A DNA stretch of 8,661 nt, from IMG/VR virus record IMGVR_UViG_2713897161_000004, one strand, 5' to 3'. The DNA comes from a virus (taxonomy: Duplodnaviria > Heunggongvirae > Uroviricota > Caudoviricetes). Below the pieces are notes generated by a model, which did no database searches, had not been told where the DNA came from, and saw nothing but the letters and a program-made list of their open reading frames with translations. Below are positions 1,328 to 1,856 of the stretch, in pieces. A program made the translations under genes and the position numbers. Every line of letters begins with the position of its first letter. Position 1 is the first letter of the stretch.

Positions 1328-1856
1328 ACACAAAAATCAGATACGGCCTGTCGGCTGCCGTTCTGGCGCTGATTGGTGCTGGCGCATCTGCTCCTCAGAT
1401 ACTTGACCAGTTTCTGGACGAAAAAGAAGGTAACCACACAATGGCATACCGCGATGGTTCTGGCATATGGACCATCTGTCGGGGTGCCACAGTGGTGGAT
1501 GGAAAACCGTTTTTCCCAATATGAAACTGTCGAAGGAAAAATGCGACCAGGTCAACGCCATTGAGCGTGATAAGGCGCTGGCATGGGTGGAGCGCAATAT
1601 AAAAGTTCCACTGACCGAGCCACAGAAAGCCGGTATCGCGTCATTCTGTCCCTATAACATTGGCCCTGGTAAGTGTTTTCCGTCGACGTTTTATAAGCGG
1701 CTTAATGCCGGTGATCGTAAAGGCGCATGCGAGGCGATTCGCTGGTGGATAAAGGACGGTGGACGTGATTGCCGCATTCGTTCAAATAATTGTTACGGTC
1801 AGGTTATTCGTCGTGACCAGGAGAGTGCATTAACCTGCTGGGGGATAGAACAGTGA
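1324..1856 (+). pseudogene. SAR endolysin (T4-lysozyme-like, glycoside hydrolase family 24; R21/RrrQ type) disrupted by a frameshift near 1503-1509
   Basis: Two ORFs in different frames: 1324..1524 (MNTKIRYGLSAAVLALIGAGASAPQ...EGNHTMAYRDGSGIWTICRGATVVDGKPFFPI*) and 1467..1856 (...[117 protein letters not shown]). The N-terminal fragment has a Gly/Ala-rich SAR segment and an intact E-x8-D-x5-T catalytic triad. One extra base at 1503-1509 would give a single 177-codon frame. Confidence 0.8.

Follow-up and report, generated by a model that had tools for sequence, protein, structure and literature searches.

A single-base frameshift in the lysozyme gene rrrQ as one step in the decay of a Qin prophage remnant of Escherichia coli

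Introduction

The closest described relative of the gene analyzed here is rrrQ of Escherichia coli K-12, which lies in the Qin cryptic prophage within the gene order essD-ydfR-rrrQ-rzpQ-cspI and encodes the SAR-type lysozyme RrrQ (YdfQ, LYSQ_ECOLI, WP_001092971.1) of 177 aa. This protein belongs to the same family of T4-lysozyme-like fold, PF00959 (Phage_lysozyme), as the phage 21 lysozyme R21, represented by the structures 3HDE (full length) and 3HDF, and as DLP12 RrrD, represented by 4ZPU; in both of the systems compared an S21-family holin gene (PF04971) adjoins the lysozyme gene. The SAR domain is recognized as a weakly hydrophobic N-terminal segment rich in Gly, Ala and Ser, E-x8-D-x5-T is the canonical lysozyme triad, and SAR endolysins are activated by membrane depolarization (PMC9239132 and references cited there). 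Our literature search on rrrQ returned one relevant functional study, in which deletion of the K-12 gene left peptidoglycan integrity and vesicle output unchanged (PMC12287860), and no paper describing the frameshift that is the subject of the present work.

Qin and other prophages of E. coli decay by deletion, insertion of IS elements and point mutation (PMC6379469), and frameshift pseudogenes are part of the piecemeal decay of such cryptic, or 'grounded', prophages. Here we compare these systems with a stretch of 8,661 nucleotides (IMG/VR record IMGVR_UViG_2713897161_000004), hereafter called the window, which is a remnant of a Qin-type lambdoid cryptic prophage of E. coli. An earlier reading of its letters, hereafter the original prediction, had proposed that the endolysin gene of the window is inactivated by a single-base frameshift and that the prophage is lysis-dead and domesticated. 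The window shares its locus order with K-12 and differs from K-12 RrrQ in having four As instead of five in a short run (alleles A4 and A5 in the following), which leaves a 66-aa stub.

Results

Reading frames and the missing base

On the evidence of its reading frames, rrrQ in the window is a pseudogene of the SAR-type lysozyme gene of the Qin cryptic prophage (table 1). The ORF that begins at ATG 1324 (plus strand, frame 1) has 66 codons, MNTK…ATVVDGKPFFPI, and ends with the TGA at 1522-1524, the C-terminus of its translation being …DGKPFFPI; a second frame, which can be followed from 1497, gives GWKTVFPNMKLSKEKC… and stays open until the stop at 1854-1856. The A run at 1503-1506 consists of four bases (AAAA), and the native frame is lost after codon 61 (Lys61), with five wrong codons preceding the stop. 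Insertion of one A produces a single ORF of 177 codons that reads …VVDGKTVFPNMKLSKEKC…. When rrrQ of 13C1079T is aligned with that of the window, the sole difference is GGAAAAACC versus GGAAAACC at 1503-1506, and the locus comparison with L002 and L010 likewise gives an additional A at 1503 as the only in-gene difference. Because the 13C1079T protein bears the accession WP_001092971.1 (177 aa), which is also that of rrrQ in K-12 MG1655, the repaired product is identical to K-12 RrrQ. A missing G, which would give CCGGTT and …DGKPVFPNM…, was also considered and is ruled out by the closest intact alleles, which show A (…DGKTVFPNM…).

The original prediction had placed a single-base frameshift just past the catalytic triad, in the A run, and had offered a fifth A as one possible repair of a gene whose product ends in PFFPI. 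All these elements are borne out by the split frames, by the translation of 1324-1524 and by the alignment with the intact allele, from which one A is the sole difference; the homologues do read through in one frame, and comparison with the closest intact alleles identifies the missing base as A.

In database searches, 4,398 E. coli records match the window gene, and two of them, ET881 (GCF_041316755.1) and SW071610, do so with 100% identity; the next-best group has 99.8% identity and spans 534 bases versus 533. PGAP labels the gene of E. coli ET881 as 'rrrQ lysozyme, frameshifted', so that its frameshifted state is already annotated in one complete genome.

Table 1. Features of the window around the rrrQ pseudogene and in the remainder of the prophage remnant
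Feature	Position	Strand	Description
IS26	1..768	-	Terminal inverted repeat at 755-768; the window opens with the stop codon of the transposase
essD holin gene	796..1011	+	71 aa, PF04971 Phage_holin_2_1 (S21-type family), intact
ydfR (DUF1327)	1016..1327	+	Intact; stop overlaps rrrQ start (ATGA)
rrrQ pseudogene	1324..1856	+	533 nt versus 534 in the intact gene; 100% identity to the ET881 gene
Mutation site, A4 run (A5 in intact alleles)	1503..1506	+	From alignment with the intact allele
Truncated product, 66 aa	1324..1524	+	Residues 1-61 as in the wild type, followed by PFFPI as aberrant tail
Premature TGA stop	1522..1524	+	Overlaps ATG 1521-1523, the wild-type Met67 codon (ATGA); sequence CAATATGAAACT
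Out-of-frame C-terminal remainder	1521..1856	+	111 codons from Met67
rzpQ i-spanin gene (DUF2514)	1853..2350	+	165 aa, intact; GTG start overlaps rrrQ stop
Embedded o-spanin ORF	2046-2300		Within rzpQ; 84 aa, lipobox LTSC
cspI and small genes			Among the listed contents of the window
DUF1441 gene	4829-5323		
Truncated large-terminase gene	5323..6807	+	494-aa ORF, fused to non-terminase sequence; PGAP 'missing C-terminus'
Tail-fibre fragment			After the terminase gene, before ydfI
Host gene ydfI without its N-terminus	7441 to window end		

Domain content of the two halves

The repaired 177-aa protein matches profile positions 2-125 of the 125 in PF00959 with 84.5 bits (cut-off 22.3 bits), whereas the 66-aa stub covers positions 2-25 with 17.9 bits, which is below the same cut-off. 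The 111-aa piece starting at Met67 covers profile positions 34-125. Since the two ORFs contain complementary parts of one PF00959 domain, they are one split gene and no chance pair. The matches of the repaired protein in the PDB are R21 (3HDE and 3HDF) and RrrD (4ZPU), with E values of about 1e-16, a level at which rrrQ is a paralogue and no orthologue of these genes. The alignment spans residues 9 to 174 and thus runs from the N-terminal anchor to the C-terminus, with E-x8-D-x5-T at the same aligned positions, whereas the window copy is truncated past residue 61.

A pattern search finds E35-x8-D44-x5-T50 within the stub, where it lines up with the corresponding motif of R21, and the repaired protein combines this motif with the full-domain match. 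Residues 7-24 (YGLSAAVLALIGAGASAP) include 11 G, A, S or T among 18 and have a mean Kyte-Doolittle value of 1.4, thereby forming a weakly hydrophobic, Gly/Ala/Ser-rich N-terminal segment of the SAR type, and in the alignment with 3HDE this stretch coincides with the SAR region of R21. Both the SAR anchor and the triad are consequently located in the 66-aa stub, in agreement with the original prediction that the fragment keeps them. A proline after ASA is a sign against cleavage, and its presence in rrrQ suggests that the SAR segment is uncleaved. Intact RrrQ is predicted to act in the manner of a SAR endolysin that has a pinholin as its partner, and would then be exported by Sec, tethered to the membrane, and released and activated on depolarization.

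Residues 62-177, corresponding to about 80% of the lysozyme domain, are missing from the stub, which to judge from this domain content is very probably inactive and devoid of muralytic activity. The 111-aa remainder lacks both an export signal and catalytic residues, and in other assemblies gene callers annotate it as a gene of its own, of 111 aa. With wild-type residues 62-177 missing from its encoded product, the window gene would not specify a muralytic SAR endolysin and is best classified as the pseudogene of a member of the SAR endolysin family, rather than as a functional member.

Distribution and inheritance of the A4 allele

An 81-nt probe centred on the A run matches 1,790 complete genomes. 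Among the matches listed, only ET881 (frog faeces, China) and SW071610 (wastewater) are identical to the probe at 100%, and both genomes are also 100% identical to the window over 769-8661; the other matches listed span 82 bases versus 81. Hence about 1,788 of the approximately 1,790 complete E. coli genomes with the locus differ from A4 in the probe, again among the matches listed, outside which a third record also lies in the identity band of at least 99%. The exact 66-aa product is found in 97 contigs and 222 index blocks of public assemblies, the sources being NCBI isolates, JGI and ENA metagenomes, and Logan. The carrier lineage is widespread, with frog, wastewater and human gut samples represented among the 97 contigs.

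Every carrier that was fetched (L001, L003-L009, L013 and L014, counted as nine because L003 and L009 are the same assembly) has A4 on an identical deletion haplotype. The carriers are no duplicates of a single assembly, for they differ in private SNPs, namely 5585T>G in L004, 1726C>T in L005 and L013, 3937C>T in L007 and 1484G>A in L014, and because they bear such SNPs, the A4 allele must have been inherited, with descent continuing after the mutation.

Two of the four distinct SNPs of the carriers lie inside the 533-nt pseudogene, at 1484 (G54D) and 1726 (A135V), and both are non-synonymous in the wild-type frame. Their clustering has a binomial P of about 0.025 in a very small sample of four distinct SNPs and hints at relaxed constraint. 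Short members of the 66-aa protein cluster (67-156 aa) were also considered as independent truncating alleles and rejected, since those inspected end in normal wild-type sequence and are mostly labelled 'partial'. They are probably contig-end fragments, and as such uninformative on recurrent inactivation.

The prophage remnant and the order of events

In comparison with Qin of K-12, the remnant in the window is far more deleted: tail genes, pinQ, ydfK and ydfJ are missing and ydfI is truncated. At window 5323-7440, one deletion took the whole morphogenesis region together with pinQ, ydfK and ydfJ. The truncated large terminase is a marker of the deletion haplotype on which the frameshift lies; all carriers encode its 494-aa product, and a look-up of this product places that haplotype in 229 blocks of public assemblies. 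The locus L010 (GCA_946061485.1), which differs from the window by four SNPs over 7.9 kb, shares with it the 494-aa terminase and the 406-aa ydfI, but has A5 and an intact lysozyme of 177 aa. The large deletion therefore predates the frameshift, given that L010 combines the deletion haplotype with intact rrrQ.

The IS26 element lies ahead of the holin gene, at a distance of 27 bp from the ATG of essD. In L014 (GCA_037636305.1) a complete IS26 at 627-1446 is flanked by an 8-bp target duplication, CCATCCGT, and the empty site in ET881 (L001) reads …ACACCATCCGTTATCTG…. Among the loci compared, the window and L014 alone have IS26 at essD, and no complete E. coli genome searched has it at this site. 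The IS26 is a simple insertion and the latest event, so that the order is large deletion, frameshift and then insertion of IS26. The prophage context of the original prediction, with a truncated terminase and a displaced promoter, holds inasmuch as the terminase is truncated and IS26 separates the holin gene from the region upstream.

To the left of the window, L001 contains cargo genes at 4486-7282, flanked by the genes for the Q antiterminator and the holin; in this Qin variant the cargo consists of a lipocalin, a DUF523/DUF1722 YbgA-like protein and an AraC-type regulator. With this cargo in between, the late promoter would be separated from the lysis genes by about 3 kb regardless of IS26. 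We also considered whether TTGCAA of the IS26 repeat (756-761) and a -10 box before essD could make up an outward hybrid promoter, and discarded the idea, no workable -10 spacing being seen by eye, where the only candidates are TTATCT-like boxes at 13-14 bp. The Logan contig L008 (1-442), which has the same haplotype, ends in essD at window 882 and not at the IS26 junction at 768.

The ORFs of the holin and of both spanins are intact, and the cassette would thus have lost murein degradation while keeping the potential to damage membranes. In the original prediction the prophage was called lysis-dead, a term that is reasonable for murein degradation but does not extend beyond it, in view of the intact holin and spanin genes. 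Stop and start codons overlap along the lysis cassette, as ATGA at 1324-1327 and 1521-1524 and as GTGA at 1853-1856; with such overlaps, the premature stop may also lower spanin translation by polarity.

Discussion

Concordance among independent assemblies is the basis on which we consider the change from A5 to A4 a genuine inherited mutation, a reading which, with neutral pseudogenization included, is the best overall explanation of the data (probability about 0.9). The original prediction had retained the caveat of a homopolymer sequencing error, and the difference is indeed one of a single base at a homopolymer site; that the strain truly has five As, under-called in the run, is nonetheless extremely improbable. 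The A4 run recurs in the two complete genomes and in many independent draft and metagenome assemblies, including isolates, metagenome contigs of the short-read MEGAHIT style with k127_ names, and Logan contigs. It also co-segregates with one structural haplotype, about 1,788 other complete genomes among the matches listed lack it, and its carriers have acquired private SNPs as descendants. A run of four or five As is, moreover, too short to be miscalled systematically on most platforms, and the caveat can be largely dismissed. Selection for the loss of the enzyme, a stray SAR endolysin being dangerous, is very unlikely. An enzyme exported ahead of time could lyse the cell on any membrane depolarization, and the carriers of A4 are spread over frog, wastewater and human gut in 97 contigs, but this spread is explicable by hitch-hiking, A4 has a single origin with no sign of parallel loss, the gene is intact in nearly all other E. 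coli genomes and its deletion in K-12 had no reported phenotype (PMC12287860).

A different view is that the two halves of the gene remain connected, either by leaky recoding at A_AAA or by ATGA-coupled reinitiation yielding the 111-aa C-terminal piece of a split enzyme. The tRNA-Lys is known to be slippery on A runs from dnaX and IS elements; on AAA 1504-1506 it could slip back to AAA 1503-1505 and continue with ACC GTT, this -1 slip recreating the exact wild-type protein (…DGKTVFPNM…). The ATGA at 1521-1524, for its part, falls exactly at wild-type Met67, and the neighbouring genes of the cassette are likewise joined by ATGA and GTGA overlaps. Yet the window sequence has no tandem slippery heptamer, the next codon, CCG, is common, and A4 is a recent derivative of a one-frame gene with zero other in-gene changes, which leaves no time for a signal to evolve. 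Neither does the site resemble a programmed ribosomal frameshift, in which the shift is shared by homologues and accompanied by a slippery sequence and a stimulator, considering that the homologues are single-frame and that the shift is confined to a single haplotype (2 of about 1,790 complete genomes, among the matches listed). As for a split enzyme, its C-terminal piece would be cytoplasmic, having no export signal, and its N-terminal piece membrane-anchored and periplasmic. We therefore regard recoding or reinitiation as hardly likely, and it would be most surprising if the A4 allele were partly alive, whether through low-level wild-type RrrQ produced by the -1 slip or through a two-piece enzyme obtained via reinitiation at Met67. 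Were this true, the output of a dangerous SAR endolysin would have been throttled to a level that the host can tolerate or put to use, for instance in vesicle release.

The preferred reading, a real mutation followed by neutral pseudogenization, can be laid out as a sequence of steps in the Qin remnant of one E. coli lineage. The large deletion came first, with loss of the morphogenesis genes and fusion of the terminase, tail-fibre and ydfI fragments. The frameshift followed, for which replication slippage in the short homopolymer appears the simplest cause; translation of rrrQ would then exit the native frame after Lys61 and leave a dead stub. In the last step, seen only in the sub-lineage that includes the window, IS26 inserted just upstream of the holin gene. 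The resulting cassette would no longer be able to lyse the cell, even if its holin could presumably still kill when expressed.

In this scheme the frameshift would be one late step of neutral prophage decay. Neutral loss is plausible because deletion of rrrQ in K-12 was without phenotype in the published assays (PMC12287860). The retention of intact rrrQ in nearly all other E. coli with the locus could nevertheless reflect some selection, in which case the loss may not have been strictly neutral. Nothing points to selection for host benefit, so that the term 'domesticated', used in the original prediction, finds no backing in data that fit the neutral decay of a dead Qin remnant.

The locus shows no material difference from the frameshift pseudogenes of other cryptic prophages of E. 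coli. It is a further case of ordinary prophage decay, here with the order of events resolved, and the pseudogene flag on rrrQ of this lineage should be kept. Of the 'lysozyme' entries that stem from draft assemblies, those of 66 aa and 111 aa are the two halves of rrrQ. The frameshift is usable as a real lineage marker and has little significance beyond annotation; with its endolysin lost after the morphogenesis genes and before the arrival of IS26, the remnant offers a small example of the stepwise decay of Qin.
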